This document shows positions 310 through 26,852 of a stretch of DNA of 58,537 bases, one piece after another. Source of the stretch: a virus (taxonomy: Duplodnaviria; Caudoviricetes); the IMG/VR virus record IMGVR_UViG_3300045955_000127, positions 1 through 58,537 of that record. One strand, 5' to 3'. A program made the translations under genes and the position numbers. The notes beneath the pieces are model-generated. The model was not told the origin of the DNA, ran no database searches, and saw only the letters and a program-made list of their open reading frames with translations. Numbering within the stretch: the first letter of the stretch is position 1; the number at the start of each line of letters is the position of its first letter.

Positions 310-578
310 AAGTGAAAGTTTGGGAAGAGCTGCCGGAGGATTCGTTCGCCATGAACTACGACAAAGAAATCAAAGAATTGGAGCAGGCGATCCGCGTCTC
401 GAAGCGCTGCACCGGAAAGCCGCCGCGCGTTCTGATCCGCCGGCTCTCTGTGCTTGAACACATGCGAGAGTGGACCAAGAAAGAGAAGTTAGCGCAGACC
501 AAACTCAAGACGTATCGGCGGAAGTTGCGGGCTTATAAGGCGTGGGATACGATCAAAAGGCGTTCCGCGGGAACTTAG
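306..578 (+). CDS. Hypothetical basic protein
   Basis: GGAGGT SD; ATGA overlap with the previous gene. Confidence 0.7.
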   Translation: MKVKVWEELPEDSFAMNYDKEIKELEQAIRVSKRCTGKPPRVLIRRLSVLEHMREWTKKEKLAQTKLKTYRRKLRAYKAWDTIKRRSAGT

Positions 579-628
579 CACACTGTTCCTCCCGTGGACG
601 GCGAGAGAGTCTCGTCAGCTCTCTCCAG

Positions 629-663
629 GCCGGGCTCCGTTAAGGCCCGGCTTTTCTTTTTTT
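629..663 (+). terminator. Rho-independent terminator between convergent transcription units
   Basis: GCCGGGC-9 nt loop-GCCCGGC followed by TTTTCTTTTTTT; a second hairpin (GAGAGAG..CTCTCTC, 603-625) lies just upstream. Confidence 0.75.
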
Positions 664-957
664 CAAGATACTGGCGAGGATCTCGCTTATGTAGCGATCG
701 AAATCTTTGCCCCTTGTTCGCCTCTCATCGTAGGTCATCAAGGTACTGGAATAAAGGGCTTCCCCCCGGTCTTCCCGGGCTTCCTGGATCCTATATTCCT
801 TCCCGTTTACCTTAACGTTAAACCCCCTGGTGGAATCAAACTGCTGTCGCAATCCAGGCGGGAGATTCTCCAGAATAATGCGTAGGCTCATCTTTGTGGC
901 CTGGAGATCCGACGAGTCGCCAGATTCGCCGGTTGAATTTTCTGGGTCAAAACTCAA
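640..957 (-). CDS. Hypothetical protein
   Basis: ORF coupled to the upstream gene; ends in the terminator hairpin. Confidence 0.5.
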   Translation of the reverse strand: MSFDPENSTGESGDSSDLQATKMSLRIILENLPPGLRQQFDSTRGFNVKVNGKEYRIQEAREDRGEALYSSTLMTYDERRTRGKDFDRYISEILASILKKRKAGP

Positions 958-1367
958 TTTATGAAAAGAGCCTTCGGCGCTTCTAGCGCTCTTGGTAGGT
1001 CGTCAAGGATTTGCTTTCCGATTGTCTTGCCGGACTTGGTGACAAAGTAAGGCAAAAGCAGCTCCCTTATGTCGATCACTCCCGAATCGGCGGCTTCAAA
1101 GATCGCCTTGATGTGGTGATATAGCACCCGCCAGACTCGGCGTTCCTCCTGCTCTTGGGCGGATTGGCTAGATTTCTCCTTGACCGGAACAGCTATCCTG
1201 ATTCCATACGGCCGCCCATCGATCGCCACGCTGGCCTGGAAACCCTCAACCCGCACAGGCTCGCGGGCCGAGCCAAATTGAACATTGGACGCCCCATGCC
1301 CGAGGAGCATTTTTTTGATTTGCCCCTGACTTTTTTCCGGAGCAACGATTGTTTGATTATAAGCCAT
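954..1367 (-). CDS. Phage hypothetical protein
   Basis: Likely start MAYNQ at 1367; protein-like composition (QEERRVWRVLYHHIKA...LLPYFV). Confidence 0.65.
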   Translation of the reverse strand: MAYNQTIVAPEKSQGQIKKMLLGHGASNVQFGSAREPVRVEGFQASVAIDGRPYGIRIAVPVKEKSSQSAQEQEERRVWRVLYHHIKAIFEAADSGVIDIRELLLPYFVTKSGKTIGKQILDDLPRALEAPKALFIN

Positions 1368-1531
1368 CCTGCTCGTGTCCCCCCCTGGAAATAATGTGTT
1401 TCTTGGGCTCCCTACCACAACCTGCACGACGTTATGGGCATAATGGATACTATGGGTAGATTGCCGGAGGCCTGGCATGACTGCAAGTCATAGGACTGAC
1501 GGCTTCAGTTCGATTCATGGGCTTGTAATTC
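1368..1531. other. Candidate attP region
   Basis: Non-coding gap directly downstream of the integrase. Three 9-bp-period direct repeats (TATGGGCA/AATGGATA/TATGGGTA, 1433-1458) and an inverted repeat ATGACT-GCA-AGTCAT (1477-1491). Confidence 0.35.
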
Positions 1532-2776
1532 TTAGCTTTTTTCGCCTTCGGTTTTACTTTTTCGTAAAACCTGCTGCGATTCTGCTAGTGCTTTACCAGC
1601 AGAGAAGACCGCATCCGCCAATCGGCTTGCACTGGCTGATCGCATCTGCGGAATAAAATGGCTATAAACCTGAAGCGTCACGTCCATCCGGGCGTGTCCG
1701 AGCATTGCACTAACATCCGGGATCGGCGTCCCGGCCATCAAATGAATACTGGCACCGGTATGCCGAAGGGCATGAAGTCTTAATCGCCTCACTCCAGAAG
1801 CCTCGCAGGCGTTTTTGTGTGCGTGATAGGCAGCACTTTGGGGGTAGGGCAGACCGTTTGCCCTAGCCAAGACGAGATCGTGCGTCCCTGGCGGATTCTG
1901 TAGCTTCCAGCGGGCCAATAAAGCGACCAGCTGGTCCGGGATGGGCACTATTCGCATTCCGCTTTTGGTTTTGGGCAACCAGAAAACGGGCTTGCCGTCC
2001 CGGTATTTGCCGCCCCAAGACCTCCGGATCGCTATTTCCTTGGTTTCTAGGTCAACATCCGACCACATCAGGCCCAAGATTTCGCCCCTTCGAGCCATCG
2101 TGAGGGCGATAGTGTTGAGGAATACCTCATCGAATCCCGGCTTGGCGCCCTGGAGCAATAGAAACAGCTCCTCGGGTGTGTAGACTTCTTCATGGTGCAC
2201 GGTGAATATGTCATAAGCCCATTCTTCGCCGGGCTCCTTGGGTTGACTGGCCAATCGCGCAGCTGCTTCTACCGGGTTGAACCGCAGCACGCCGAGCGCG
2301 ATCTGCTTGCGGAATATGACCTGCAGCGTGCTCATTACCTTGTTCACGCTCTTACCGGCTAGGCCCATCGTTTTCCAAATATCTCGAGCGTTTTCGACCA
2401 TCCGCGTATCGACGCGATCGGACCGATAATCGCCAAGAACCGGGTTGATGTACTTCTTGACGTGATTTTCCCAGTACAGCAGAGTGGATTCTTTTAGGGG
2501 CCCCCCCATCCTTGATGCGGTGATCTTCTTGGCTTCCAACCATTCAAGGGCAGCTTCTCGAATCAGCGGTGTCTTGCTAGGCAAAAACTGGTTGCGGCCG
2601 ATCTCCTCCAGGCGCTGGCGCAACCGTTGGCGCGCGCCGGCTTCCGTGTCGCATTTGGTCGATTCCACCCGTTCCCTAGATCTATACGGGTAGGCTATGC
2701 TAAAAAATCTTGATTCAGCGATAGACCCGTCTGGCCTACGCCAGCGCCGACGAAAAATTCTGCCTATTCCGCTCAT
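1532..2776 (-). CDS. int: Tyrosine integrase
   Basis: Catalytic motifs MARRGEILGL (R), PKTK (K), HALRH, LGH and LQVYSH (Y); N-terminal arm-binding region; GAGGGAG SD before MSGIG. Confidence 0.95.
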   Translation of the reverse strand: MSGIGRIFRRRWRRPDGSIAESRFFSIAYPYRSRERVESTKCDTEAGARQRLRQRLEEIGRNQFLPSKTPLIREAALEWLEAKKITASRMGGPLKESTLLYWENHVKKYINPVLGDYRSDRVDTRMVENARDIWKTMGLAGKSVNKVMSTLQVIFRKQIALGVLRFNPVEAAARLASQPKEPGEEWAYDIFTVHHEEVYTPEELFLLLQGAKPGFDEVFLNTIALTMARRGEILGLMWSDVDLETKEIAIRRSWGGKYRDGKPVFWLPKTKSGMRIVPIPDQLVALLARWKLQNPPGTHDLVLARANGLPYPQSAAYHAHKNACEASGVRRLRLHALRHTGASIHLMAGTPIPDVSAMLGHARMDVTLQVYSHFIPQMRSASASRLADAVFSAGKALAESQQVLRKSKTEGEKS

Positions 2777-2929
2777 CGGCAATCTCCCTCCTGCCGGATT
2801 ACCGGCCACCCTTTGGTGACCATCCAAAAGCCTATGAAACCATAACGATACTGGCAGAAGAGAAGAGTTGGCGGGTACGGGACGCCTAGTCCCGTTCTGA
2901 AATCCGGAGTTGAGAACGTGTCACTCACT

Positions 2930-2959
2930 GTATTACGTTTTCCGTTTTTCACTTGTCAA
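2930..2959 (-). promoter_or_regulatory. Sigma70-like promoter for int with an operator motif in the spacer
   Basis: Minus strand TTGACA-agtgAAAAACGGAAAACG-TAATAC. Confidence 0.55.
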
Positions 2960-3035
2960 GAAAAAAATAAATGACCCGAGAAAATAAGGGAAATAATCAT
3001 GCCAATGTTACATAGGTAACAAGCGCAATTCCCCC

Positions 3036-3224
3036 TTATTTAGTCTGCTTTATCCATGCCAGCCATCGGTTGCAGTTTCTACAGTATTTCCCTTCGTGTG
3101 GACCTTTCATCTTTGTATAAGTAGCGAACGATCCACATTTGGGGCAAGCGTCTGCCGGATCGTGGTAAATAAATTGTTCCGGCAAAGGCCGTTGACAATA
3201 TGGGCATAGTTCTTTTGCTTTCAC
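3036..3224 (-). CDS. Small zinc-finger protein
   Basis: Three CxxC pairs (CPYC, CPKC, CRNC); GPHEGKYCRNCNRW. Confidence 0.7.
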   Translation of the reverse strand: MKAKELCPYCQRPLPEQFIYHDPADACPKCGSFATYTKMKGPHEGKYCRNCNRWLAWIKQTK

Positions 3225-3475
3225 GACCCCTGCATCTTCAATTTTCTCTCAAGATACTTCTGGATTCCGTTGTACGAGAACCGAATGCACCCGCTTAGCT
3301 CAACGCGGAACGGTAAGTCTTTCCGCATGTACAACAGATTAGGACTAACTTGCAAGAGCTTCGCCGCCTCTTTCGCCTTGAGCAGCCGATCGTCCATCCG
3401 CCCCTCCTTGAGCGCCGCCAGCTCCTCGCGGATCACGGTCCTGATGGTTTCTTTGAGGAAGGATTCGAGGGTCAT
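3221..3475 (-). CDS. Excisionase-like HTH_17/MerR-type DNA-binding protein
   Basis: DRLLKAKEAAKLLQVSPNLLY...LPF...IRF motif. Confidence 0.8.
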   Translation of the reverse strand: MTLESFLKETIRTVIREELAALKEGRMDDRLLKAKEAAKLLQVSPNLLYMRKDLPFRVELSGCIRFSYNGIQKYLERKLKMQGS

Positions 3476-3924
3476 TTCTTCTGTCCGATCATTATCTCCG
3501 CTCTTGGCCGGCCGCCCTTCTCGTGGAAGTTCTTCACGAGGCGCAGCTCACACACCTGTTTATCATCGCAAAAAATAACACCGCTTAAACTGTCCATTAA
3601 ACTTTTGGCGAGATTTTCTATATCGGGCTTCGATGTGCATGGGATATCGCCTTCGGGATCTTTCTTCCGGCAAAGCGATTGTGGACGCGGGAGATAAAAA
3701 GCGACGATCATCCAGACCGGGCCATCCCATTGAACCGAATCCCCGGGGTAGCGTTCATACCATGCCTTTATTGCGGCAGTCTTCACGTCACTCTTCCACT
3801 GAGTTACCGGGTGTTTCTTGGGGGTGTAATTATGGACCCACGCGCGACCGTCAGCGGCGTTCATAAGGCTATGTCTCTGACGAGGCTGCGCGACCGGACT
3901 TCCGAATACCGTAAATTGAATCAT
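3472..3924 (-). CDS. rusA: RusA family Holliday junction resolvase
   Basis: FYLPRP, KPDIENLAKSLMDSLSG and DDKQV motifs. Confidence 0.92.
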   Translation of the reverse strand: MIQFTVFGSPVAQPRQRHSLMNAADGRAWVHNYTPKKHPVTQWKSDVKTAAIKAWYERYPGDSVQWDGPVWMIVAFYLPRPQSLCRKKDPEGDIPCTSKPDIENLAKSLMDSLSGVIFCDDKQVCELRLVKNFHEKGGRPRAEIMIGQKK

Positions 3925-4013
3925 AGGCTTATTAACCAGCTCATCGTAAATCCAGTCAGGATCGCCCCAAGCCAGATGCCAAGACAGAGATAGGCCACGT
4001 AGTACCAGATCAT
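3921..4013 (-). CDS. Small single-TM peptide (30 aa)
   Basis: MIWYYVAYLCLGIWLGAILTGFTMSWLISL*; ATGA overlaps at both ends exactly fill the gap. Confidence 0.55.
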   Translation of the reverse strand: MIWYYVAYLCLGIWLGAILTGFTMSWLISL

Positions 4014-9864: not shown

Positions 9865-12800
9865 TTAATCGCCTCCGAAACTAGGATTTGCCACGGTTAG
9901 GCAGGGTGTCACATCGTGAGTGAAATTTACCCCGCCAACTATGCGCGGCTGGAAACAGAATTGATCTCCTACCACTACATCTGGATCTATCTTAATCAGC
10001 GCGATAAAGTTCGTCGTTGAATCCTCTGTTAAATCTACCGTAGGGTTAGTGGCCTCTTTGCCTATAACCGCGCCCGCAACAAAACTGCCATGTGGGTCGG
10101 TTGTTAAAGCTGACGTGATTGGCTCGGCGTCAAAGAGTGTTGTACCCGAAGCTACCCCGAACGCCACGCCTACAGCATTGGTGCAGGTAGAATTAAAGCT
10201 GCCCGTGGTAGAGTTAAATTCGTTGCCGGTACAGGTGACTTGTCCCGCTGTGGAGTTGTCTACAATATTTGTTCCATTGAGTCGGTTCTGGGTAAAGCCC
10301 AGAGAGGCGGGTATATGAGAGCCTGTACCGTTGGTTATGCGTCCGCCATTGATCGTGTTGTTACTGATAACCGTATTATCAAGTGAGTTTCGGATCGCGT
10401 CTTTTCCCGTGTCGGGTAGGCTAAATGAATTGGCATCTACGGTGACTTGAAAATTCTGGTACTCCTCCGCTACGCCATCATTGCCGAGGTTGATGCACCT
10501 GTTGAAATCACAATCTACAAAAACATTACTCTGTACCAGCCTGATCGAACCGGCTCCGGTGCCAGTTTGAATGAGCATGATACCCGTAGTGATATTTGTC
10601 CCATCGAAATAATTCCCGATGTAATTGACCGTGGCCCCAGCCGCGCTGCCTTTGTCGTCTATGCAATTCTCAGACAGGCACTGAGGAAACCAGTTGTAAG
10701 AAACCTCGTTGACTCCATCTATATCGCCAGGATCTGCTGCTGCTGCGTTGCCGATTTGCAGGTTATCCTCTGCATCGGTAGCAGTCTGGCTGATCTTGTT
10801 TCGGGTGATAAGAAGGTTCTTGGCCTTGCGCCCGCCCGAGCCCACATTGTTGCGGATGTAAACCGCCATCTGCCCCAATCCGCCAGTGACATTGTGGACA
10901 ATCGCGTTACCTCGGAGAATCGCTCCGTCCACATCGCCCGCGAATTTAACCGTAGAACGACTGCCAGTGCCTGATGCCGTGACGGTGTTATTCTCGTACT
11001 TACTGCCGGTTGCCCAGACTGTGCCGTTGAGAACCGTGGGTCGAAACAGCGCACACGCAGCGCCACTTGAGCAATTATGCTCGAAGCCCCTGACTTCGAC
11101 ATTGGCACCGATCTCAATCTCACCGACGATTTCTATCGCCTCGCAGTTGTAGGGTTTTAGAATCGTCGGATTGCCGCTTGTGCCCTCGCCTATTATCCAC
11201 GGGTTTCCAGCCACGGTAAAAGTCGCCCCACTGGTATTTCGCAGCAGGAATGTCCCGCCCGTAGAGTTTTCGAGCGCTGCTTCCCATCCGTCTGCGGTTG
11301 TCAAAACTGTGCCTGTGGTGGTGCAGGACTCGTTAGCCTCGCCATAAGTAAGGGTAAGCGGGTTGGGGTTTTGGGGGGGCAGCGTTGGAGGCCCCGATGC
11401 CGTAGTATCCGTCATTCTGGCATAGCTGCCGCCGTTGTGATTCGCCCAGATTTCAAACCCGGCTGGATCGCAATTACCGCCCGTACAGTCAACACCGAAA
11501 GTCAGCGCGGTGTAGCCGCCCCTCATAACAGATGCCGCCGTCGCCTTATCTTCGGGACCACGCCACTTGGGAGATGCCAGCGTGCCATCAAGATGAAACC
11601 AGCGAAAGTTGATCGTGGTCAGAACCGCCGCGCCACCACCGGCCACGTTGTTTTGAAAGGTTTGGAGCGCAAAGGATAGAATATCACTATCCAGACAGCC
11701 AAAAACCTCACCACCGATACACTCATTTCCGGTCAGCTGCGTGCCCGCTGCCCCCGGCCTGGTGTAAGATCCCTTGATTGTGTTGCCGGCTGCAACCGTA
11801 CCGGCGATTCCAATACTCACTCTGGCCGTTTGCGAGAGGGCACAGTTACTTTCAGTCTGTCCGACATCACCGCCGCCCGTGTCGATTGTGACGTTGAAAT
11901 GCTGCGTGGTGCAGCTCTTTAATCCAACACCACCCCTAATTGCCTGCGTAGGCACGCTAAAATTATACCTAAAGGTACCCGCGTCACCGTTTTCAACTGT
12001 GCCCGTGGAGAATCTAATTGTCTGGAAAGCACCAATGTCACAGGTATTCCCTGGGGCTATACACTGATAGCCGTTAGGGAGTCCGGTGCGTGTACCCTGA
12101 GCCAAAAGTGAAGATCCTTCACTTGGGGTAAACCTATTCTGAGAAACATCTACGAAGACGGTGGCATCGGTTCCAAAGTGATTATTAGAAACCGTGTGAC
12201 TGCCTCCAGATTCGTCAATGCTGTTATTTTCATTGTTTACACAAGCGTTGTTTCTAATAACGTGCCCGCTACCGAAATCAGAGTGTACCCCGATGCAAAA
12301 GTTTTGGTTATTGTAAATCGTGTTGTTATACACCTTGATGTTTAGGTTTCTGCCGGAATTAGTCGTGCCGGATACCGTGATTCCATCGCCGGTCGAGCCC
12401 GGCGTGATAGTGCCGTCCTTCAGAATATTGCCGTAAACTTCGGAGCTGTCGTTGTCCTGAAGTAAAATTCCCGTTTTGCCGTGTTGTAGAATGAAGTTGA
12501 AGCGAATCTTCAGCCGCACCATAGAGTTCGCGCCGGACTCGTTAGCGTTCGTCGCTTGAATGCCAAGCCCGATAGTGTCATGCACGTAATTTCGTTCAAT
12601 GATGCAATCGACACACTTGCCAAAATAAATTCCATGCCCCGGATTGCTGCTGGCGATGTTGCCGCAGTTAAACATTTGGTTGTTCACAACCTCTGTCAAG
12701 CTATTTGATGACGATAGGCCCGCCTGGGTGATAAAGCAGCTCGACCCGCTCGATGCAGTAGTTGTGGAGTCGTGAAATATAGAGTTGTACCATTTTAGAC

Positions 12801-13254
12801 CGACCGTGGAGCCTTGCGTCCCGCCGCAAAACACTAGAGACACGGAACAATCAAAATCAATATTGTCGAACGTGATCCAGCTGCGGCCATTTTGGACCAT
12901 TGCGGGGCCAGAGGTAGGACGTATAATTGCTGCTTGGTTAGAGTCCCAGCCGCGGACTATAGTTGGGTTGCTCTGTGTGCCCGAGGGAAAATTCTTGCTG
13001 TTGTTCGACCAGAATCCTTCGTTATAAGTTCCGGCTTTAATGTTTACAGTATCGCCGCTGGACATGCACAACCGCGCCTCTTCGATGGTATCGAAATGGT
13101 CGGCGTTGGCAGAGCCTGGATCGGTTGAACTTTCTGCGGCTCCGCAACTCGCAGCAGTTCCCCCCGGCTTAACCCAGTATGTTGCAGCGTTCGAAATCCC
13201 AACCGTCAGTATGTACAGAAAGAGCGTGAGTATGATTTCTCTTGTTATCTTCAT
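9865..13254 (-). CDS. Signal-peptide-bearing right-handed beta-helix (pectate-lyase-like) protein; putative receptor-binding/depolymerase
   Basis: MKITREIILTLFLYILTVGISNA|ATYWV; GDTVNIKAGTY; Asn-ladder repeats; DIGAFQ cap; a second beta-helix block; 30 Cys. Confidence 0.8.
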   Translation of the reverse strand: MKITREIILTLFLYILTVGISNAATYWVKPGGTAASCGAAESSTDPGSANADHFDTIEEARLCMSSGDTVNIKAGTYNEGFWSNNSKNFPSGTQSNPTIVRGWDSNQAAIIRPTSGPAMVQNGRSWITFDNIDFDCSVSLVFCGGTQGSTVGLKWYNSIFHDSTTTASSGSSCFITQAGLSSSNSLTEVVNNQMFNCGNIASSNPGHGIYFGKCVDCIIERNYVHDTIGLGIQATNANESGANSMVRLKIRFNFILQHGKTGILLQDNDSSEVYGNILKDGTITPGSTGDGITVSGTTNSGRNLNIKVYNNTIYNNQNFCIGVHSDFGSGHVIRNNACVNNENNSIDESGGSHTVSNNHFGTDATVFVDVSQNRFTPSEGSSLLAQGTRTGLPNGYQCIAPGNTCDIGAFQTIRFSTGTVENGDAGTFRYNFSVPTQAIRGGVGLKSCTTQHFNVTIDTGGGDVGQTESNCALSQTARVSIGIAGTVAAGNTIKGSYTRPGAAGTQLTGNECIGGEVFGCLDSDILSFALQTFQNNVAGGGAAVLTTINFRWFHLDGTLASPKWRGPEDKATAASVMRGGYTALTFGVDCTGGNCDPAGFEIWANHNGGSYARMTDTTASGPPTLPPQNPNPLTLTYGEANESCTTTGTVLTTADGWEAALENSTGGTFLLRNTSGATFTVAGNPWIIGEGTSGNPTILKPYNCEAIEIVGEIEIGANVEVRGFEHNCSSGAACALFRPTVLNGTVWATGSKYENNTVTASGTGSRSTVKFAGDVDGAILRGNAIVHNVTGGLGQMAVYIRNNVGSGGRKAKNLLITRNKISQTATDAEDNLQIGNAAAADPGDIDGVNEVSYNWFPQCLSENCIDDKGSAAGATVNYIGNYFDGTNITTGIMLIQTGTGAGSIRLVQSNVFVDCDFNRCINLGNDGVAEEYQNFQVTVDANSFSLPDTGKDAIRNSLDNTVISNNTINGGRITNGTGSHIPASLGFTQNRLNGTNIVDNSTAGQVTCTGNEFNSTTGSFNSTCTNAVGVAFGVASGTTLFDAEPITSALTTDPHGSFVAGAVIGKEATNPTVDLTEDSTTNFIALIKIDPDVVVGDQFCFQPRIVGGVNFTHDVTPCLTVANPSFGGD

Positions 13255-14321
13255 TGGAAAAATATCGGCGCTATGCGACGACGGCTCGACCCTGCCGCTG
13301 CCGGAATTGCTCTAATGGCATACCAGTAATAATCAACACCTGATTCGTTGACCCTGAGGTTTGTTCCCACTTCAAAACCATTGACTAAAAAATCCTGAAT
13401 CTGATCCGTTCCACACGTAGCCGTAGTTGCCACACATGACTCATCGCCGGAATTGTCCTTGAATCTAAAAGTCATCACGTTATTTGCTGTCGCACTATTG
13501 GCTTTCATCAAAAGAAATTCCGGTTGAAACCCAAGGGTTGTTATTTGCCTATCGTCGCTTGCATCGCCGGCGTAGGTGCCATCTATCGAGCTACCGCCGG
13601 CGTTTTTCATGGCCCAATAATGCACTGTATCAGTAGCGCCGTTGACAAAGCCGCTAGTGCCAACCTCAAAGCCGTTGGAATTTAATGCTTGAATCCTGTT
13701 TGATGTTGCGCACGATGCCCCGCTAGCTTGCGAGCAGGTCTGATCTCCGGTCAGTGCCGCAAATTTGAAAACAAAAACATCGCTGCTTGTTTCTGTCTGT
13801 ACGGCTACAAAATCGGGCTGAAAATCGTTGGCGTCGCTGGTGTCGGAAATATCAATGTCGCGCGCATCGAGACCATCTCCAGCATAAGTGCCCACGGCAA
13901 AATCATCGTTAACACCATCCTTGGCGAGCGCGAGATAAAAACACGTCACGCCGCTTGCGTTGACTTGATTGTCAGACCCTATCTGAAATCCGTTGGCGCT
14001 AAATGCCTGAATTCTGTTCGTCACGGGTCCAGCGTTTGTATTAAGAACAAGGGAAGCATCAGCTCCCATTGTTGCCGTGCTCCAAACTGCTTGTTCAGTG
14101 GTATTGCATTTGACAATTACCAATTCGGGCTGGAAATCCGTCACGCTTGGCGTCGTAGTGTCGGAAATATCTATGGTGCGGTTGTCTGTGGCGTTGCCGG
14201 TATAGGAGCCGCTGGCCATCAAGTAACCGAAGCTTGTTTCGGGAACGAAAACCGGGCACAATAAAAGAGCGGCTAGGAAGACGTTCCGAAGCCCCTGTTT
14301 CCTGGCAGGGATGCCGCGCAA
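13251..14321 (-). CDS. Repeat-containing putative virion protein with signal peptide (start uncertain; 5' end disrupted by an HNH insertion)
   Basis: Three repeats of G(S/T)YxG(N/D)xxDxRxI...FQP(E/D)...IQ...NGF(Q/E)(I/V)G. Candidate TTG14321 gives ...RNVFLAALLLCPVFVPETSFG|YLMASG. The upstream part of the listed ORF is antisense to the HNH. Confidence 0.7.
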   Translation of the reverse strand: MRGIPARKQGLRNVFLAALLLCPVFVPETSFGYLMASGSYTGNATDNRTIDISDTTTPSVTDFQPELVIVKCNTTEQAVWSTATMGADASLVLNTNAGPVTNRIQAFSANGFQIGSDNQVNASGVTCFYLALAKDGVNDDFAVGTYAGDGLDARDIDISDTSDANDFQPDFVAVQTETSSDVFVFKFAALTGDQTCSQASGASCATSNRIQALNSNGFEVGTSGFVNGATDTVHYWAMKNAGGSSIDGTYAGDASDDRQITTLGFQPEFLLMKANSATANNVMTFRFKDNSGDESCVATTATCGTDQIQDFLVNGFEVGTNLRVNESGVDYYWYAIRAIPAAAGSSRRRIAPIFFQ

Positions 14322-15016
14322 CTTACCCCAGGAATGCACGACAGGAGGTGCAATATGGCAGCTCATAACTTCAAAGACATTACGGGTCAGCAGTTCAGCC
14401 GCTTGAACGTATTGCGGCGCGCGCCCAATAACGCGCTTAACCAAGCCACGTGGCTCTGTGTATGTTCCTGCGGACGGCAAATTACTGTCCTCGGGAACAA
14501 GTTGCGCAGTGGTCATACTCGTAGCTGCGGCTGCATTAACGTCGAGCGATGGTTGCGCGAACGGACCACGCACGGATATTCCAAATCTCCTGAGTGGCGA
14601 ATTTTTCAGCACATGAGAGACCGTTGTAATAACCCGCGCTGTAAAAACTTTCGCGATTATGGCGGACGCGGAATTAAAATGCTCTTCTCTTCTTTTGAAG
14701 AATTTCTCGCTGAAGTGGGGCTGCGACCAACGCCGAAGCACTGGATTGAGAGAATATGCAACGATGGCCATTACGAATCGGGAAACGTGAAGTGGGCTAC
14801 CAAGATTGAGCAAGCCAATAATACCCGCGCGAATCATTTCATTACCTTCAAGGGAGAAACTAAGACGGTGGCGCAATGGGCTACGCAGTTGGGAATTAAC
14901 GTCGGCACGATCCATGCACGTATACATGCTGGCCGGTGGTCGCCTGACAGAGCTTTGTCCACCCCAACACTTATATATTGGTCAAGGCAAAAGCGTTCCT
15001 GGAACGCGAACAGGTA
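14226..15016. mobile_element. Homing-endonuclease insertion (about 791 bp) in a structural gene
   Basis: Removing it fuses signal peptide MRLIKALILAGLLWVTPAHA to YLMASGSY in frame; the junctions read TACCTG and TACTTG on the minus strand. Confidence 0.6.
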
Positions 15017-15017
15017 G
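14355..15017 (+). CDS. HNH homing endonuclease, antisense to the late operon
   Basis: DITGQQFSRLNV, WLCVCSCG, SCGC, YGGRGI, IERICNDGHYESGNVKWATKIEQANN; AGGAGG SD. Confidence 0.92.
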   Translation: MAAHNFKDITGQQFSRLNVLRRAPNNALNQATWLCVCSCGRQITVLGNKLRSGHTRSCGCINVERWLRERTTHGYSKSPEWRIFQHMRDRCNNPRCKNFRDYGGRGIKMLFSSFEEFLAEVGLRPTPKHWIERICNDGHYESGNVKWATKIEQANNTRANHFITFKGETKTVAQWATQLGINVGTIHARIHAGRWSPDRALSTPTLIYWSRQKRSWNANR

Positions 15018-15076
15018 GCATGAGCAGGAGTTACCCAGAGCAGCCCCGCCAGGATGAGGGCTTTAATAAGTCGCAT
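15011..15076 (-). pseudogene. Orphaned signal peptide (original 5' end of the 13251 gene)
   Basis: MRLIKALILAGLLWVTPAHA|YL, overlapping the end of the upstream gene, then running into antisense HNH sequence. Confidence 0.6.
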
Positions 15077-17696
15077 TGATACTAATCCCAATCAGGTGTA
15101 ATCCGGTAAACGCATCCTCATAGTCCGTCGCTGTCGCATCCACATCGCCGGTAAACGTCACCCAATCACCCGCTGCTGGAGTGTTAGCGATGGTGATCGG
15201 CGCCGTAGTACAGCTCATATAATCTTCAGTCTGGTTGTTGAACGTACACGTCGCCTGCACATTCGCCGCCGTCGGGTCTGTAACCGCCGCGAACTGGTTC
15301 CCCGGCGCGTAAGAATCCCCGCCCCAATCCACAGCGAAGTCATTGAGCGAAGCCGTAGCCGAGAACATGTGCATCGTCAGCGTAACCGTTCCAGCGTTCC
15401 ACGTTGCCGGCATTGGGAGCGAGAACTTAATGCGACAAGCGTTGTCGTCCGCAGGGTTTATAGTAAGAATGTCGTCGTTGGGTAGGGCTTTCTCAGTTGG
15501 TGTTTGGTCGGTGCAGCTCGCAGACCCCTTCATGTAGGCTGCTGGGATGAAAATAGACTTGACTGCTGCGGCAGTCGCAACATTGGCCCAGCTGCCATTT
15601 ACCCTAACCCTCAATGCGTCGGTGTCGGTGCGGTAGAACAAATCCCCATCGGTGACTTGCGCTGTTGGATCGGCTGCGCCGCTGCCCGGATTGACCCCCT
15701 GCGCACCGCCGACAAACTTATGGTTCCCCTGCATTGCCAGCGTGCCAGTGCCGGTCGCAGTAGCATCGGGGTTGGCTATAATGACCGCCGAGTCATCGTC
15801 CTCGTCCCAAAGTGCCCACGTAAACCCAACCGGAACTAAGGTTCTCCTGTCAGCATCTGTGCAGGGTTTCCACAACGGCCCATGCGTGGCATCGGTAAAT
15901 CCGCACATCGGCGTGACACCATCGCCAATCCGTACGGAGTTTCCTAGATTGTTAGCCCCAGTGAATGTATTGACGCCAGTGAAGGTATTATTTCCAGCGA
16001 GGGTAACATCGCCGGCGCCGCCTGCCGCCTGGTCCCAAACTGCCGCCGCCACCGTACTGTCGATCAAATCCCAGCATCTTTGATTCTCGGTTCCTGCGGA
16101 ATTACACCATCGCGTTACGCCGGCTATATAGCCATCGCCGGAGTCGTCATTTTCATCTGGATCGCGGGTTTCTAAAACTCGGGAGATTTTACAAGTGAGA
16201 TTGCCTTGAGCATCTATCGCGTGAGCGAAGACTCCAACATTGGTGCTCGTTATTGTGCAGTCCGTTGGATTACTGGCAAGACTCCCGGCGCTGCCGGTTG
16301 TGTTTGAATTTAGATAGGCAAGACTTTGGCTTGCTGTGCCGTCGTGAATCTTGGGTATTCCCGTGGTGGAATCTAGGCCAAATTCCCCCGGGGCCGCTGG
16401 AGTAAACCCCGCCGAGTTGGGCACTTCGATTGTTACCGCGCCGAAGTCCTGCTTGCCTGATGTATAGGTAGTAGCCGCCCCGCGGCTTACGTAGTCAGTG
16501 CCCGCCGCCGCCGCCGCTATATTCCCCCCGCCATCGGCTTTAACGATGCCCGTTATAGCGCCGACGATTGGGTCGCTCTCAGTGATCGTTACCGTGGTAT
16601 CTGGATCGTCATCGGTGACATTTACGGCAGTGCCGACAAAATTGAGATTGTTGCGCTGCGTGAGCGGCGTTCCCTCATTTTCGATCGTATGACCACCGCC
16701 AACCGACGTAGGGCAATTGGTGCCGTCTTCCTGGCAAACGCTGGTGCCTCCAATGGTAACATCGACGGTCGCCGCAACCGAACCAGAGCTGAGAGTGTCC
16801 GTACCTTTATCGTAAGTAAGGCTGCTATCCGTGCCACAAGCTCCGGCATCATTGAAGGTTACTTCGGTATCCGATCCGCAAGCGCCGCCACCTGAGCCCG
16901 GCGGGCGCGCAAAGCCGATCACCGAAGGCGTGCCGGTTATCTTCAAAGTTCCTGGCGTGCCCGAAGCGAGAACCGCCTTAACGGAAGTGGCGCCAGACAC
17001 GTTGCAGCGAAAGACGCCCTCCGCGGCCAGCCATGTCGTGCTGGTATAGGTCGTCCCGCCATCGAGTGAGTAACAATCGGTTGCCTCGAACTGCTGTCCA
17101 TCTGTACTGGTCTGGATAGAGAATGTAGAGCTATTAAAATCTCCGGTAGCGGTGATCAGCAGCACTTGACGGCCACCGATCGGATGAATGGGATTTTGCA
17201 CTGGCGTGGTCGAACTGTTGTAAAGCCCCATCGAAGGAATCACGTCTACCGGGTAGAGGCTGCCTACGGATCCGGCCGGCGTCACGTTCCCCACCATCGA
17301 TGCGTTCGCGCTAATCTTCACTGCTGTGGGCGAGCCGCTATTCAAAACGGCCTTCACCACTGCGGCGCCAGACACGTTGCAGCGCCATGTTCCGGGGGCA
17401 GTGATCCAGCCGTTAGCCGTAAATGTTGTAAGCCCGTCCATCGAGTAACAGTCTGTGTTAGCGTAGGTGATCCCATCGCCGCTGATTTGCACATGGAAGG
17501 TTGCGCTATTAAAAGTCCCCCCGGCGGTCACTTGGAGGACTTGCCACCGCCCGTTTAGGTTAAATGGGTTTACTGAGCCCGAGATCGTGTTGTTATAGAG
17601 CAGGAATTCGGTGAAGATCGGCCCCACTGTGGTTTGGCTGAAAACGGAAGTCGTTAAGCAGAAAACATAAAATAGAAGAGCAAAAAAAATCTTCAT
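15063..17696 (-). CDS. Tail-fibre-like protein with N-terminal signal peptide
   Basis: MKIFFALLFYVFCLTTSVFS|Q; duplicated N-terminal beta domain; fibre motifs GSDTEVTFNDAG, TIENEGTPLTQRNNLNFVG, ITGIVKADG..AGTDY, LAGNNTFTGVNTFTG, DGDLFYRTDT. Confidence 0.8.
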   Translation of the reverse strand: MKIFFALLFYVFCLTTSVFSQTTVGPIFTEFLLYNNTISGSVNPFNLNGRWQVLQVTAGGTFNSATFHVQISGDGITYANTDCYSMDGLTTFTANGWITAPGTWRCNVSGAAVVKAVLNSGSPTAVKISANASMVGNVTPAGSVGSLYPVDVIPSMGLYNSSTTPVQNPIHPIGGRQVLLITATGDFNSSTFSIQTSTDGQQFEATDCYSLDGGTTYTSTTWLAAEGVFRCNVSGATSVKAVLASGTPGTLKITGTPSVIGFARPPGSGGGACGSDTEVTFNDAGACGTDSSLTYDKGTDTLSSGSVAATVDVTIGGTSVCQEDGTNCPTSVGGGHTIENEGTPLTQRNNLNFVGTAVNVTDDDPDTTVTITESDPIVGAITGIVKADGGGNIAAAAAGTDYVSRGAATTYTSGKQDFGAVTIEVPNSAGFTPAAPGEFGLDSTTGIPKIHDGTASQSLAYLNSNTTGSAGSLASNPTDCTITSTNVGVFAHAIDAQGNLTCKISRVLETRDPDENDDSGDGYIAGVTRWCNSAGTENQRCWDLIDSTVAAAVWDQAAGGAGDVTLAGNNTFTGVNTFTGANNLGNSVRIGDGVTPMCGFTDATHGPLWKPCTDADRRTLVPVGFTWALWDEDDDSAVIIANPDATATGTGTLAMQGNHKFVGGAQGVNPGSGAADPTAQVTDGDLFYRTDTDALRVRVNGSWANVATAAAVKSIFIPAAYMKGSASCTDQTPTEKALPNDDILTINPADDNACRIKFSLPMPATWNAGTVTLTMHMFSATASLNDFAVDWGGDSYAPGNQFAAVTDPTAANVQATCTFNNQTEDYMSCTTAPITIANTPAAGDWVTFTGDVDATATDYEDAFTGLHLIGISINATY
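16989..17384. repeat. Direct repeat marking an internal domain duplication
   Basis: Identical 21-mer GGCGCCAGACACGTTGCAGCG at 16989-17009 and 17364-17384 (RCNVSGA in both domains). Confidence 0.9.
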
Positions 17697-17703
17697 AACA
17701 GAT

Positions 17704-18618
17704 TTACCTTCTGTCGATATCTAGCCCAAGACCGAAAATGCTGTTGGATGGCGATGCGCCACTCCATTGCGCCGTGATATCCAAATCTTGAACGATCGAA
17801 GAATCGGCCCCGCTGGCAGCGATTCTGCTCAGGGTAAATAGATTGGCTATCCCTCCGATGTTTAACGATGACGACTCGAGAAATCCCAATGAGGAAGTCG
17901 ATTGTGAATTGGCGGAATTTCGAGCGTGCAGACGCGACCGTAACGCTACCCCGACATTAGCAACTAGGCCGCCCGTGGGGTTCGCTATCGGCAACGTGAA
18001 TAATTCAACACCAGCGTAACGCAGCCGGATGGTCACCGTAGCTGCCGCCACAATCCCGATGATCTCAAAGTCGCAGTTGATATGAAGAAAACGATTTGTG
18101 CTAAGAAGCCCAGCCGCGATCTGTTTTGAATAAAGATCAGTTTCGCTGGCGGTGTTCGTTACATCGGGCTCGCTAACGTCTTTGATTAAAGCCGCGCTGT
18201 CAATCCGGACATTGCCTCCCGAGGGATTGACGGCTTCGCTGCCATTGCCATTGATAAAATTTATCAGGAGCTGCGATTGCAGGTTGACGCCGTTTGCCTG
18301 GATTGTGGCTCCAGACAAAGAGCCCTCAAAGACAGTGCCAGCCAGCAACGCCGCGATGCTCCCCGTTGCCGACCCCGGCACGATTCCCGTAACCGGCATC
18401 CCTGTACCGATGGTTACCGAAACGATCGCAGTCTGAGGCAATGCAATCGGGCTCAATGCCCCGCTTGAATTCGAGATCGTCGAGGCGATGCTTACAGCGA
18501 TCACGGACCCGCCGATGATTTGCTGCGGAACGCTGATGACGACAAGCGTATTCGGGAGAGCGACCCCGTTCGCGTTATAGAGCGTGCCCGAGACTATGCA
18601 AGTTCCTGGAGCTGGCAT
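17704..18618 (-). CDS. Putative fibre/anchor protein (no signal peptide)
   Basis: CIVSGTLYNANG Ig-like N-terminus; VTNTASETDL...LDITAQW C-terminal domain typical of phage fibres. Confidence 0.65.
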   Translation of the reverse strand: MPAPGTCIVSGTLYNANGVALPNTLVVISVPQQIIGGSVIAVSIASTISNSSGALSPIALPQTAIVSVTIGTGMPVTGIVPGSATGSIAALLAGTVFEGSLSGATIQANGVNLQSQLLINFINGNGSEAVNPSGGNVRIDSAALIKDVSEPDVTNTASETDLYSKQIAAGLLSTNRFLHINCDFEIIGIVAAATVTIRLRYAGVELFTLPIANPTGGLVANVGVALRSRLHARNSANSQSTSSLGFLESSSLNIGGIANLFTLSRIAASGADSSIVQDLDITAQWSGASPSNSIFGLGLDIDRR

Positions 18619-18623
18619 AAGAG

Positions 18624-19001
18624 TTAACCCCCCGGAAAATACTTCTCTGCTACCGGATTCCAAAAGAAAGTTTTTGCCGTGCCGGCGGCCAGTGCGACCG
18701 CCGCGGCGATATTGCCGCTGGTCCCCGTACTGAAACCATCGATCGCCAATAGGACGACCGGGCCAAAATCCTCGCGCGCTTCTATCGTTTGTATCGTCGT
18801 GGATCCGGTAACAGGTTGGAGGCGGCGTGTCGGCGCTATTGTCGTGGCCGAAGCGATTGAGGCGAACGGTTCTCGGTCTATCGGATTCAAAAAGTCGCGC
18901 GTGTATTTTAAGAATTTTTCCCAGTATTCGAAAAAATCCTTCACCCGCTCATTCAAAGCAGGATTGCCGACGCGAAAGGATGGCGGATCGTAGCGCGGCA
19001 T
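18624..19001 (-). CDS. Putative tail protein
   Basis: SIASATTIAPT..VTGSTTIQTI..TGTSGNIA motif; TAATG coupling. Confidence 0.65.
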   Translation of the reverse strand: MPRYDPPSFRVGNPALNERVKDFFEYWEKFLKYTRDFLNPIDREPFASIASATTIAPTRRLQPVTGSTTIQTIEAREDFGPVVLLAIDGFSTGTSGNIAAAVALAAGTAKTFFWNPVAEKYFPGG

Positions 19002-19315
19002 TATCCAATTTCTCCCGTGAGCGACCAAAGAATTTCGAATACCCGCGCCTCGGCAACACCGCTATCGGCTTCGAGGCGCAACTTCTCCGCATGGAAGATC
19101 ATCACCATCTGAGCACCGTCTGCCGTCAACTCAATCTCCGTCGTTCCGCTCTTGAGCAATGCGTTATTGGTCTTTCCCCATACGCGGATATTGACTGCCT
19201 CCGCTAATGTCGTTGGCGAAAGGATCAGAACCGCCATGGGCGACCGGCTGCCCAACGAGATCTCATTGGAGTTTTGCTCGCCGTTTGGAATCGTCAGTAA
19301 ATCGGAGCGTGCCAT
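19001..19315 (-). CDS. Small beta-rich virion protein
   Basis: TIPNGEQNSNEI...LRLE jelly-roll-like pattern. Confidence 0.6.
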   Translation of the reverse strand: MARSDLLTIPNGEQNSNEISLGSRSPMAVLILSPTTLAEAVNIRVWGKTNNALLKSGTTEIELTADGAQMVMIFHAEKLRLEADSGVAEARVFEILWSLTGEIG

Positions 19316-19317
19316 TT

Positions 19318-19566
19318 TCAGGTGATCCTTGTAATGTCCGTGATATCTGCGATCAAAAGCAGCCTACCCTCTACTACGCCGCCGCCCCCCCACAAACTCT
19401 CTGGCATTCCCCAGAGTAATTGTTGCTGGTCGTCCTGCCCTAATGCGCCCGGCGAAACCGGCAACCCCGGTTCCCAGACCTGGCACCACTCCATAAAGGC
19501 CAACTTTAGATTGTTGACAGCTTCCGGCCCAGCTCCGCCGCCTTGAAATAGGAGTAAAAGGCTCAT
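19318..19566 (-). CDS. Small virion-associated protein (MSLLLLFQGGG type)
   Basis: GGAG SD; ATGA coupling; DDQQQLLWG motif. Confidence 0.6.
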   Translation of the reverse strand: MSLLLLFQGGGAGPEAVNNLKLAFMEWCQVWEPGLPVSPGALGQDDQQQLLWGMPESLWGGGGVVEGRLLLIADITDITRIT

Positions 19567-20318
19567 CTCCCTACTCCCATCAGCGACATAGTGGAGCCGC
19601 CTGCCGCTGCCCCCGCTACCTCCGCTATGGCAAAATGGATAAACGCCCTGTCATCTGTAGCGCCAGAGGAATAGCCTACCGATCTGCTTCCGCTCCCCGG
19701 CGTGGTTTCGCGGCCCATCATCATCACACGCGATCCTACGTCCATGTCATGGAGATGGGTGCTATTAGTTCCAGCCGAGGGTAAGTCCGCCAGCCCAGAG
19801 CGACCACAGACTAATCGAAGGGCCGTCACCGCGCCCGAATCAATTGCCTGTTCGGCGAGTGTGCCGTCCTCTTCCAAAAGTACACGGGTTCCTACCTCTT
19901 CCGTATCGCCCCCTGCGGTAAAGGTCACGGCGACCGCATAAGCCTCATTGGCGCTATTGTCTCTTGTGACAACCACAGAGGCGGGATCATCTGTCGGTAC
20001 GGATCCACCTAAAAACCAGACGGTCGCCGTAGCAAATTCCCCTATTGTATCTTGCGCCACGGTTCCAAGCCTCGCCAGCGGCACCCCAACATAAGTGACT
20101 GCGCTCACAAGAGTTGGGGTATCGTCGTCATTCCCCATAACACACACGGCAACTCCTCTAGGAGTACCCACGGGGTCATGATCCCATGTAAAACTCGCCT
20201 CGCTAGTCGAGGGCGTTGTCGCGGTATGCGATTCACTAGCAGCGTCAAAGGCAACAACCGCCCACGCGGGACGAGCAATCAATAGGGCGACAAACAAGAC
20301 TGCAAGTCGTTTCATCAT
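19563..20318 (-). CDS. Signal-peptide-bearing beta-sandwich protein
   Basis: MMKRLAVLFVALLIARPAWA|VVAFD; C-terminal tail GGSTMSLMGVGR. Confidence 0.75.
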   Translation of the reverse strand: MMKRLAVLFVALLIARPAWAVVAFDAASESHTATTPSTSEASFTWDHDPVGTPRGVAVCVMGNDDDTPTLVSAVTYVGVPLARLGTVAQDTIGEFATATVWFLGGSVPTDDPASVVVTRDNSANEAYAVAVTFTAGGDTEEVGTRVLLEEDGTLAEQAIDSGAVTALRLVCGRSGLADLPSAGTNSTHLHDMDVGSRVMMMGRETTPGSGSRSVGYSSGATDDRAFIHFAIAEVAGAAAGGSTMSLMGVGR

Positions 20319-21892: not shown

Positions 21893-22816
21893 TTAGAATT
21901 GAGCGTAACTGATATCGACCCCGATATTCGCAGCTCCCGATTGAGTCACACATAGAGCATCGCCGCCTGCATCGGATTTGAGCACCATCCCAACACCCGA
22001 CCCGCGTGAAATACCTACGGTTGCGCCTGCGGTAAGAATCATGCCGGATGATCTATCCGCCTGACTTGTAGCGCAATCAGTTCCCGTGCCGGATACGAAC
22101 TTAACCGAGGTTTGAGCATCGCCTTCGCTGACAATGGAAAAACTACAAACATAAATAACAGTTGATCCCGACAGGGCAACGATTTCGGTCGTTGTCGCTG
22201 TGGTCATGTTAAGAAAAGCATTATTAGTGCATTTGATATCCGCATTGCCGTTGGCCCCTTGGGTCTGTACGGCCACAGTTCCGTCGGAAGTAGTTTTAAC
22301 ACGCCGCGCCGTGGAGCCGCCGTCGTCCGATCCAGAGATTTGAATGTCGTCGATGGTATCGCTGAGGGCAGTAATTAGATTAACTAACGTCAGTCGCAGG
22401 TTAGACGGCACCCCCACTGCTCGCCCCGTCACGGTCACGGTCCCGGCTGAGTAACCGGATATTCGCGCTCTGACGGCTTGCAGGCCCGCGACAGGGATTT
22501 CCCATATCGTGACGCCCGAAGTGGTTACTGTCGTATCAAGCACCTGAGTTCCCAGTTGCACGGCATTGAGAGCGGAATAGTTTGTGGCGTCCCCCGTTCC
22601 CTCGAAATTGACAGTTGTGCCACCGGAGCATGAGGCGCAGTTGACGGTAACAATGACGGTGGACATGCCGCTAACTGTTAAAGCCGTGCCGTTGCCGTCG
22701 GCTGTTGCGGCGTTTTGTAGAGTACCCGAGATAATCGAACCTTCAATCGTAACAGGCTGTTGCGACCAAACATGAACCGGCCACAAAAGAGCAATGATTA
22801 AAATTAGTTTTTTCAT
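21893..22816 (-). CDS. Signal-peptide-bearing two-domain beta protein
   Basis: MKKLILIIALLWPVHVWS|Q; VAGLQAVRARIS jelly-roll; C-terminal SGTGTDC domain. Confidence 0.75.
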   Translation of the reverse strand: MKKLILIIALLWPVHVWSQQPVTIEGSIISGTLQNAATADGNGTALTVSGMSTVIVTVNCASCSGGTTVNFEGTGDATNYSALNAVQLGTQVLDTTVTTSGVTIWEIPVAGLQAVRARISGYSAGTVTVTGRAVGVPSNLRLTLVNLITALSDTIDDIQISGSDDGGSTARRVKTTSDGTVAVQTQGANGNADIKCTNNAFLNMTTATTTEIVALSGSTVIYVCSFSIVSEGDAQTSVKFVSGTGTDCATSQADRSSGMILTAGATVGISRGSGVGMVLKSDAGGDALCVTQSGAANIGVDISYAQF

Positions 22817-25931: not shown

Positions 25932-25950
25932 TGTAAAAACTCCTTTAATC

Positions 25951-26484: not shown

Positions 26485-26487
26485 TGC

Positions 26488-26844: not shown

Positions 26845-26852
26845 CGTGCCTC

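Follow-up and report, generated by a model that had tools for sequence, protein, structure and literature searches.

An antisense endonuclease gene and a candidate replacement leader at the 5' end of a DUF7483 gene in a temperate soil phage

Homing endonuclease genes usually avoid harm to their hosts by lying between genes, within introns or inteins or, rarely, by splitting a gene into subunits that reassemble. Here we describe a different arrangement in the IMG/VR virus record IMGVR_UViG_3300045955_000127 (58,537 nucleotides; hereafter the window, meaning the whole stretch of DNA that was analysed), which its PHROG matches mark as that of a temperate tailed phage, here one from soil. Judging from alignment with its homologues, the window's gene for a DUF7483 protein is interrupted just past its leader, the part that encodes a predicted signal peptide, by an endonuclease gene on the opposite strand, and it resumes behind a second leader-like segment (leader 2). 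The reading we favour, and consider fairly probable, is that a homing endonuclease gene has travelled together with a substitute 5' end for its host gene. An independent pair of metagenome contigs, L004 and L008, shows the same architecture, with an antisense endonuclease gene in a leader and a replacement leader behind it. The window and this pair would then present a backwards endonuclease gene in the first codons of a gene for a putative secreted protein, supplied with a spare start codon and export signal. Such an element would be a 5'-end mirror of the gene-end replacement found in fungal mitochondria, and may offer selfish nucleases a route for exchanging the 5' ends of receptor-binding-module genes between phages.

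The interrupted DUF7483 gene and the antisense endonuclease gene

The DUF7483 protein matches PF24299 with 62.3 bits against a gathering cutoff of 27 (E 5.5e-17), and also matches phrog_24898, labelled 'tail fiber protein'. Its AlphaFold2 (AF2) model (predicted local distance difference test score, pLDDT, 83.8) consists of three tandem beta-sandwich modules. A fold search with this model returned only weak matches (TM 0.23-0.27) to pseudo-threefold assemblies (for example an APC-beta domain, the PCSK9 C-terminal domain and single-chain C1q heads), and these were set aside as functional clues. A database search gave 113 other proteins at E<=0.001, most of them with PF24299. All 19 of the homologues that were aligned (36-46% identical) begin with a short hydrophobic leader whose last residue is small, and continue directly with [YFIL]x[FILV]A-xG-(S/T)Y.

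In the window these two parts lie on separate open reading frames (ORFs; Table 1). Codons 1-24 of an orphan ORF read MRLIKALILAGLLWVTPAHA/YLFA, where the slash marks the predicted cleavage site here and below (leader 15076-15017, YLFA 15016-15005). This ORF aligns with the N-termini of the homologues up to YLFA and diverges after it, reading FQERF... and further residues encoded antisense to the endonuclease gene, to a TGA at 14836-14834. Its leader is typical of the family (compare ...ISAPAHA/YKFA in P0005 and ...VTVPAHA/YKFA in L017), and its start codon, ATG15076, falls within the end of the upstream 877-aa gene, the two sharing 14 nt, just as the DUF7483 start overlaps the upstream stop in loci L004 and L017. 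The DUF7483 frame resumes as ...RNVFLAALLLCPVFVPETSFG/YLMASGSYTGN (GGT 14228-14226, TAC 14225-14223, ATG 14219-14217) or, shown to another length, as ...LRGIPARKQGLRNVFLAALLLCPVFVPETSFG/YLMASGSYTGN..., and stays intact to a TGA at 13253-13251. This second piece aligns with the homologues over its full length, from YLMA to the C-terminal RRIAPIFFQ, and is free of stops.

The joints are largely as the initial annotation, made from the sequence alone, had described them. The leader is cut off at the stop of the antisense gene, whose TAG (15015-15017) falls inside the host codons GCC-TAC (A-Y). The gene resumes about 791 bp further on with the same YL (TAC CTG in the first copy, TAC TTG in the second; 791 nt from TAC to TAC), and the stretch without endonuclease coding, put at about 130 nt, measures ~129 nt of the insert (14226-14354). 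The annotation had also placed the insertion at the signal-peptide cleavage site; the break does lie just after the leader, but four codons past the predicted site of cleavage. It had further proposed a comparison with relatives lacking the endonuclease gene, and this bears the interruption out, since the gene is contiguous in all 19 aligned homologues and uninterrupted by an endonuclease gene in related metagenome loci. Among 22 such loci, collected in a scan with a narrower alignment (A3; alignment A1 proved too loose), the leader is joined directly to the mature part in 15, it is followed by ~25-30 extra residues in three, the module lies inside a longer ORF in three, and one is truncated where its contig stops. 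In none of the 22 was an endonuclease homologue found to separate the leader from the mature part, and tblastn matches to the endonuclease occur among them only in L008 and L017, in both cases more than 2.7 kb upstream. The annotation would have been overturned by uninterrupted homologues that already start with the second leader; they start instead with a leader like that of the orphan ORF, which settles this question in its favour.

On the opposite strand, the ORF at 14334-15017 matches phrog_374, 'HNH endonuclease' (E 2.8e-54), as well as phrog_3377 and phrog_2081. Its likely start is the second ATG, ATG14355, which lies 6 nt past AGGAGG (14343-14348) and yields exactly the 220-aa form recorded as P0119. 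The family comprises 757 proteins at E<=1e-10, the nearest being 43-50% identical. An alignment of 16 sequences shows its conserved core to be complete as far as ...DRALSTPT, after which comes a tail of 15 residues, against 0-13 in the relatives; host-derived codons supply the final four codons and the stop (the last 13 nt lie in the AYLFA codons), and the gene looks intact. Invariant columns in this alignment are G122, R133, G138, Y140, N144, W147, N156 and W195, with no invariant His; we take an Arg to occupy the position of the first His of related motifs. A CxC...CxC cluster is present at residues 37, 39, 58 and 60.

The identical interrupted allele occurs, letter for letter, on contigs of other assemblies (cluster members P0001, P0117, P0119 and P0120). 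Gene calls of the source record list a 554-aa ORF running across the endonuclease antisense strand (P0115) and the 80-aa orphan ORF (P0121), while the endonuclease is recorded only from another assembly, as the 220-aa P0119 and a 134-aa fragment, P0120. Because the 554-aa ORF swallows the gene on the opposite strand, automatic annotation hides the element, an annotation trap in which a long opposite-strand ORF conceals an endonuclease gene. Soil-metagenome runs contain words sampled from the DUF7483/endonuclease region, and four of the 14 listed runs (two RNA, two DNA) gave nine contig pieces of it, all nine 100% identical to the window, with no joints and no loose ends. No piece spans either junction by 31 nt, so that the pieces are uninformative on splicing and on the absence of an empty allele, and the RNA contigs cover only 14717-14913 and 15239-15409 and are strandless. 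Further afield, positions 13000-15400 had no blastn match in the phage collection, viral contigs gave no relatives of the locus by the DUF7483 protein, the endonuclease alone or alignment A1, and genome contigs contained only two distant relatives (30-32% identity), in a Thermoleophilaceae and a Saccharibacteria metagenome-assembled genome.

A perfect 6-bp hairpin, GCGTTCCAGGAACGC followed by TTTTGCCTTG, stands exactly at the right junction (14993-15007, minus strand), and a similar but imperfect palindrome lies in leader 2 at 14236-14247. The two could be due to chance or be part of the endonuclease site; terminator-like hairpins number three against 1.8 expected, and the one at the right junction (15007-14993, minus strand) is not above chance. 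A direct repeat near the junctions (D1; 14236-14255 and 14995-15014, 75% identical) was rejected as a candidate, since it is out of register with the YL codons and typical of chance two-copy families.

The second leader and a natural pair of related contigs

Leaders were evaluated with a home-made signal-peptide heuristic. To pass, a site must be preceded at 15-40 codons by ATG, GTG or TTG in an open frame; the n-region must have a net positive charge, some stretch of 10 residues without charges must reach a mean Kyte-Doolittle value of 2.2 or more, and the c-region must measure 2-9 residues, position -1 being A, G or S and position -3 small or aliphatic. Read from TTG14321, leader 2 passes (32 aa, charge +4, core Kyte-Doolittle value 2.71, S at -3, G at -1), as it does from GTG14339 (38 aa); the orphan leader and the native leader of L004 pass too. 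As background, 73 of the 116,822 six-frame codon positions of the window pass, real leaders included, and so do 16 of 20,000 shuffles of the 123 nt of the leader-2 region. By this measure the signal-peptide-like leader that the initial annotation had seen before the resumed gene is there and is not a product of chance. Its DNA also holds the 5' untranslated region of the endonuclease gene on the plus strand. The codons that follow it, YLMA (TAC TTG ATG GCC), match YLFA (TAC CTG TTC GCG) at 3/4 residues and 8/12 nt, and because YL(F/M)A is repeated in this diverged form, the leader-2 stretch appears to be a second copy of the gene's 5' end and not a random spacer. A fresh target-site duplication was rejected, since its two copies would be identical.

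The contigs L004 and L008 come from a related phage, and their DUF7483 proteins are identical to each other and 45% identical to the window's. The two contigs agree at 99.7% of positions over L008 1455-4748 (3,294 nt) and at 99.0% where L008 1-512 pairs with L004 757-1268, with two of the five mismatches in this left flank falling within 50 nt of the junction. Between the matching flanks there are 942 nt in L008 versus 186 nt in L004. Directly before its DUF7483 gene, L004 has a 905-aa fibre gene that begins with MKKLLSFFVFLIAVCQFTYPTYA/QTT. L008 keeps codons 1-4 of this gene (ATG AAA AAA CTA; MKKL) and then has an antisense endonuclease gene (510-1259; 249 aa, 41% identical to the window's) whose stop is the complement of the host CTA codon. 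Next comes a homologous but diverged 5' end, ...RRKVPAWHVASFFALAIGVCQLPNYAYA/QGG plus ~50 further codons, ~220 nt in total, with many mismatched columns (alignment A4), and after it near-identity returns; this looks like a co-conversion tract of donor sequence. The replacement leader is homologous to the resident one (SFFxxxIxVCQxxxYxYAQ) and passes the heuristic only from a TTG (1221; 33 aa), paralleling the window's 32-aa TTG leader, while two nearer GTG starts are without positive charge. The net insert measures 750 nt and preserves the frame, which can be read from the orphan ATG without meeting a stop (ORF 501..3974). Presence/absence polymorphism is thus shown for a 41%-identical relative, present in L008 and missing from L004, and not for the window's own copy, where co-conversion is only implied, by leader 2 and by YLMA versus YLFA. 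The suggestion that the endonuclease behaves like a homing endonuclease is supported by this population evidence. As to the initial claim that the element carries a substitute 5' end, a relative does arrive with a replacement leader, but the idea of that leader as the element's own cargo gives way to another, since the duplicated YL(F/M)A and L008 point to the 5' end of a donor allele.

A mechanism consistent with these data would have the endonuclease gene spread by break repair. The break end on the side of the mature gene would invade the donor allele and copy back through the donor leader and the endonuclease gene, and leader 2 with YLMA would be the donor allele's 5' end, brought by co-conversion or partial duplication. 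The upstream join would be made right at the end of the endonuclease ORF and with little or no homology, because the upstream fibre genes of these phages can barely be aligned (only short motifs are common to the 877-aa protein of the window and the 905-aa one of L004). Copying of a donor 5' end with a non-homologous upstream join would account for the double presence of codons 21-24 and for an endonuclease ORF that ends in host codons, the stop being borrowed from host sequence in both the window and L008. The resident start, leader and YLFA would be left behind as the orphan 80-codon ORF, still translationally coupled to the upstream gene, and the host gene would survive because the copied tract carries a complete start and leader. 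It could still work, by translation from TTG14321 or from further upstream in the same open frame, with leader 2 directing Sec export and signal peptidase cutting at SFG/YL. From the letters of the genome we infer this order of events, the donor origin of the second 5' end in the window, the translation and export of leader 2 and the activity of the nuclease, and export of the DUF7483 protein would then presumably be under selection.

A number of observations weigh against this account. The distance of 791 nt between the two copies is not divisible by 3, which puts the orphan leader and the mature part in different frames. No endonuclease-free allele was found among the cluster members or the contigs from the four sequencing runs, and for this reason the insertion event and the co-conversion tract cannot be delimited in the window. 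Identity to the nearest DUF7483 relatives is no higher than 46%, and among them no leader was seen to resemble leader 2, which is atypical in its c-region (PETSFG and not PAxA) and in its length (32 aa versus 16-24 in the family); leaders of ~40 aa do occur in six loci (L007, L018, L019, L020, L022 and L024). TTG14321 is preceded only by a weak Shine-Dalgarno-like GGGG, 4 nt upstream, and G-runs also stand before the starts of other genes of this phage (e.g., 45989, 27320 and 38784). ATG14219 offers a leaderless start, and a third possible entry is from upstream, the frame of the mature part being open back to 14981. For the nuclease itself, the 'HNH' label comes from PHROG only. Pfam at E<=0.1 gave just two unrelated matches below threshold, NCBIfam gave none, and the family profile had no PDB sequence match at E<=1. 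With the AF2 model (pLDDT 85.2), Foldseek found nothing at E<=0.001, a weak row being the Gme HNH nicking endonuclease (E 0.59), and the best VIA-align match was a PacI-DNA complex, which we take to be that of an HNH enzyme, at a Z of 6.4, below the tool's caution line of 8 (rmsd 3.2 over 78 aligned residues, model residues 73-162). A promoter scan gave 0 sigma-70-like sites for the endonuclease gene.

Alternative explanations and the open antisense frame

Were leader 2 untranslated, the insertion would simply have decapitated the gene, leaving a leaderless cytoplasmic protein made from ATG14219 or a dead but recently hit gene. That ATG stands exactly at the start of the conserved module, its M replacing the usual F, and neither the orphan leader nor the endonuclease gene has decayed, as would be so after a recent event. 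We nevertheless think decapitation unlikely: ATG14219 has no Shine-Dalgarno-like sequence upstream, the few shuffles that pass place leader 2 far from random, the mature part is full-length and stop-free, the L008 analogue has also retained a leader, and a leaderless product would probably be misplaced, since all 19 aligned homologues have leaders. A different origin for leader 2 is quite unlikely in our estimation, whether it arose de novo from the endonuclease upstream region after insertion or is a cassette of the element. Signal peptides carry little sequence information, the n-region of leader 2 overlaps the endonuclease 5' untranslated region, and its c-region and length are unlike those of the family. 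Such an origin does not sit well with the YLMA codons right after leader 2, which repeat the gene's own YLFA, or with L008, whose replacement leader is plainly homologous to the resident one. Nor does there seem to be a general leader cassette, since a leader-bearing gene adjoins the endonuclease gene in only 1/26 viral loci with an opposite-strand left neighbour (L026); on this count a general association of the endonuclease family with leader-bearing genes was rejected. Finally, the 791 nt could in principle be a self-splicing intron with an antisense endonuclease ORF, from which splicing would join the first leader to the mature part, the short diverged repeat at both ends permitting an in-frame junction. 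This is extremely improbable, as the initial annotation had already leaned towards: an Rfam scan of 13900-15400 on both strands at E<=10 detected no intron family and returned only irrelevant weak matches to int-alpA (E 0.26) and SNORD94 (E 9.1), the insert has few nucleotides outside the endonuclease ORF, leader 2 would be left unexplained, and the counterpart in L008, an in-frame, stop-free insert with a co-conversion-like tract, needs no splicing.

A further possibility, compatible with a travelling substitute 5' end, is that the DUF7483 gene is translated from upstream, across the antisense strand of the endonuclease gene. Re-initiation at ATG14837 would give a 528-aa precursor with 172 antisense-coded residues ahead of leader 2, in which leader 2 would act as an internal signal and from which signal peptidase would release the normal mature protein. 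The host-strand frame is indeed open from 14981 to 13251, because the endonuclease gene has only one TTA/CTA/TCA codon (TCA 14982-14984) among its 220, where 4.8 would be expected from the 2.18% frequency of these codons in 30 genes of the phage; the departure has a P of just ~0.05. The orphan TGA overlaps ATG14837 (ATGA 14837-14834), with GAAGG 8 nt upstream, but an ATGA overlap is found about 1 time in 4 by chance once the stop is TGA. In L008 the in-frame insert has 0/249 such codons, versus 15/904 in the fibre gene, and positive charges before the hydrophobic core exist there only with a start upstream of the two GTGs. On the other side, export would require a protein with an N-terminal extension of 170-250 aa, and we regard translation through the endonuclease gene as rather unlikely. 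Fusion of the orphan ORF to the long frame by a -1 frameshift was rejected, as no slippery heptamer was seen on reading 14930-14834 by eye.

To evaluate the open frame more widely, 79 viral loci with family members (L025-L103) were classed, crudely, by the strand of the longest flanking ORFs; both neighbours are co-oriented with the endonuclease gene in 39 and opposite in 16. Stops in the codon-aligned antisense frame come to 1.34 per 100 codons in 18 antisense-placed genes, with the window and L008 included, and the other two antisense frames of these genes have 3.45 and 5.03. For the 39 co-oriented genes the figures are 3.64 in the aligned frame and 3.76 and 5.50 in the others. The difference between the two classes is significant in a Fisher test that treats related sequences as independent (odds ratio 0.40, p 5e-9), and remains without the window and L008 (49:273 vs 316:805, odds ratio 0.46, p 1.4e-6) and among genes with a GC content of 0.45-0.65 only (16 vs 16; odds ratio 0.50, p 0.0016). 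The antisense frame is fully open in 4/16 antisense-placed genes and 0/39 co-oriented ones. With the codon usage of flanking genes as control, however, the effect is moderate (observed/expected 49/61.9 vs 316/244.8, medians 0.69 vs 1.47, Mann-Whitney p 0.0066), several antisense loci, e.g., L038 and L045, lack the depletion, and the neighbour strands were called from longest ORFs only. In our view the apparent tendency of antisense-placed family members to leave the host-strand frame open is a lead and does not amount to a result; if confirmed, it would be a new constraint on the evolution of such elements.

The locus L026 is the extreme case. Its gene has a GC content of 0.44 and 0 stops in the aligned frame, the other two frames having 9 and 18, and the two host genes are bridged by a frame of 296 codons. 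At L026 2183-2264 (minus strand), before the gene adjoining the antisense endonuclease gene, two leader-like segments, MRVSIFIFMCISILVG and MKKIASVLMLTMLFASNAFG, share a frame at a distance of 27 codons and may represent a further duplicated 5' end.

These observations allow a broader and tentative proposal, less likely than not, that homing endonuclease genes have a third kind of safe site, next to introns and inteins, in the cleavable leader region of secreted phage proteins. The endonuclease gene would lie antisense in the pre-sequence with the host frame kept open. By avoiding TTA, CTA and TCA codons, such a gene would let host ribosomes read through, which would keep translational coupling and avoid polarity in the late operon, and because signal peptidase discards everything upstream of the cleavage site, the mature protein would be unchanged. 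If this is true, antisense endonuclease genes in phage operons would be selected to stay translatable on the opposite strand.

Known systems and phage context

The closest parallel to a travelling 5' end comes from fungal mitochondria, where endonuclease ORFs (mORFs) insert near the 3' end of atp6, atp9, cox2 or nad3 together with a foreign, in-phase C-terminal segment and leave the native C-terminus downstream, examples being atp6 of Allomyces macrogynus, given there by citation, and atp6, atp9, cox2 and nad3 of a Glomus sp. (PMC3630166). Like these, the window has an endonuclease gene near a gene end, a diverged, in-phase replacement end and a native end that would stay behind unexpressed or displaced. 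Each of these three parts is there, mirrored to the 5' end, and only for L008 is the replacement end shown to be of foreign origin. Unlike the mORFs so described, the window replaces a 5' end with its start codon and export signal and not a C-terminal end, its endonuclease gene is antisense where the mORFs are co-oriented and often in phase with the host gene, its enzyme is of the PHROG-374 'HNH' type and belongs to a tailed phage where theirs are organellar LAGLIDADG or GIY-YIG enzymes, and its native and replacement copies overlap by only four codons.

In T4-like phages, nrdA, a topoisomerase gene and gene 43 are each divided by a free-standing endonuclease gene, and the two polypeptides that result reassemble; the cases are mobE in nrdA of Aeh1, mobA in the topoisomerase gene 39/60 of T4 and a seg gene in gene 43 of phage 25 (PMC2988022). 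These resemble the window in having an endonuclease gene without intron or intein inside a phage coding region, with a host gene that functions or, in the window, probably does so. They differ in that their endonuclease genes, as described there, are co-oriented with the hosts, and in that the window's N-terminal piece is a leader, useless alone, so that rescue would come from a duplicate leader and not from reassembly. The window shares with homing endonucleases of the intron and intein types a conserved site inside a gene that is probably not killed, but no RNA or protein splicing element was detectable in it, and the antisense orientation rules out an intein. Nuclease genes have also been described as marking the boundaries of genetic exchange between phages (PMC10448857), and L008 compared with L004 likewise has a homing endonuclease gene flanked by diverged tracts that mark recombination endpoints; the start of its abstract mentions neither leaders nor the 5' ends of genes. 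Searches of the literature on homing endonucleases, which did not cover supplementary files, found no phage example of endonuclease-borne 5'-end replacement, and 'DUF7483' is named in no paper of the literature searched.

The record is classed as linear and is estimated to be ~75% complete, and its minus strand holds nearly all long ORFs. Within it, the interrupted DUF7483 locus lies at the distal end of the structural module (Table 1). The Mtd_N match of the 877-aa protein is weak (E 0.0032) and under the Pfam cutoff, and at the other side the DUF7483 stop overlaps the ATG of the 1129-aa gene (ATGA 13254-13251).

Table 1. Coordinates of features in the window
Feature	Position	Strand	Basis and remarks
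Integrase	1532-2827		PHROG
RecT-like protein			PHROG
Downstream 1129-aa beta-helix protein	9865-13254	-	PF13229 (E 2.5e-07); signal-peptide-like N-terminus (leader heuristic)
Mature DUF7483 part	13251-14225	-	PF24299; YLMA 14225-14214, then three tandem beta-sandwich modules
Leader 2	14226-14321	-	Leader heuristic; 32 codons from TTG14321; M-RGIPARKQGLRNVFLAALLLCPVFVPETSFG; predicted cleavage before YLMA
Host-strand open frame	14226-14981	-	In frame with mature part; crosses endonuclease antisense; ORF 13251..14927
Endonuclease gene	14355-15017	+	PHROG-374 'HNH'; 220 aa; free-standing; antisense to phage late genes
Orphan DUF7483 5' end	14834-15076	-	80-codon ORF; homologue alignment; passes leader heuristic
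Upstream 877-aa fibre-like gene	15063-17696	-	ORF list; signal-peptide-like N-terminus (leader heuristic)
251-aa ORF	19563-20318	-	Leader heuristic
525-aa ORF	20315-21892	-	Leader heuristic
315-aa ORF	21893-22840	-	Leader heuristic
155-aa ORF	26853-27320	-	Leader heuristic
Major head protein	30750-31967		PHROG
Portal	39335-41521		PHROG
Large terminase	50416-52065		PHROG
Tail protein			PHROG

Eight ORF starts pass the leader heuristic, those of the 1129-aa, 877-aa, 251-aa, 525-aa, 315-aa and 155-aa ORFs and the two DUF7483 leaders, and all lie in the tail/fibre block (9865-27320, minus strand). It is unusual for a phage structural module to encode several apparently Sec-exported proteins in a row; the same is seen in the relatives L004, L017 and L026. 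In L017, a locus of low GC content with an uninterrupted DUF7483 gene, two different endonuclease-like genes (554-1330 and 1914-2675) lie upstream of leader-bearing genes, one of them antisense, intergenic and with duplicated Cys-rich N-terminal modules, the other co-oriented. The window itself has a second, partial and co-oriented relative of the endonuclease just downstream of the portal gene (38684-39193, minus strand; phrog_3377, E 6.8e-17). Only the half with the catalytic motif matches (56% identity over residues 118-171), the Cys-rich N-terminal half being missing and the C-terminus unrelated.

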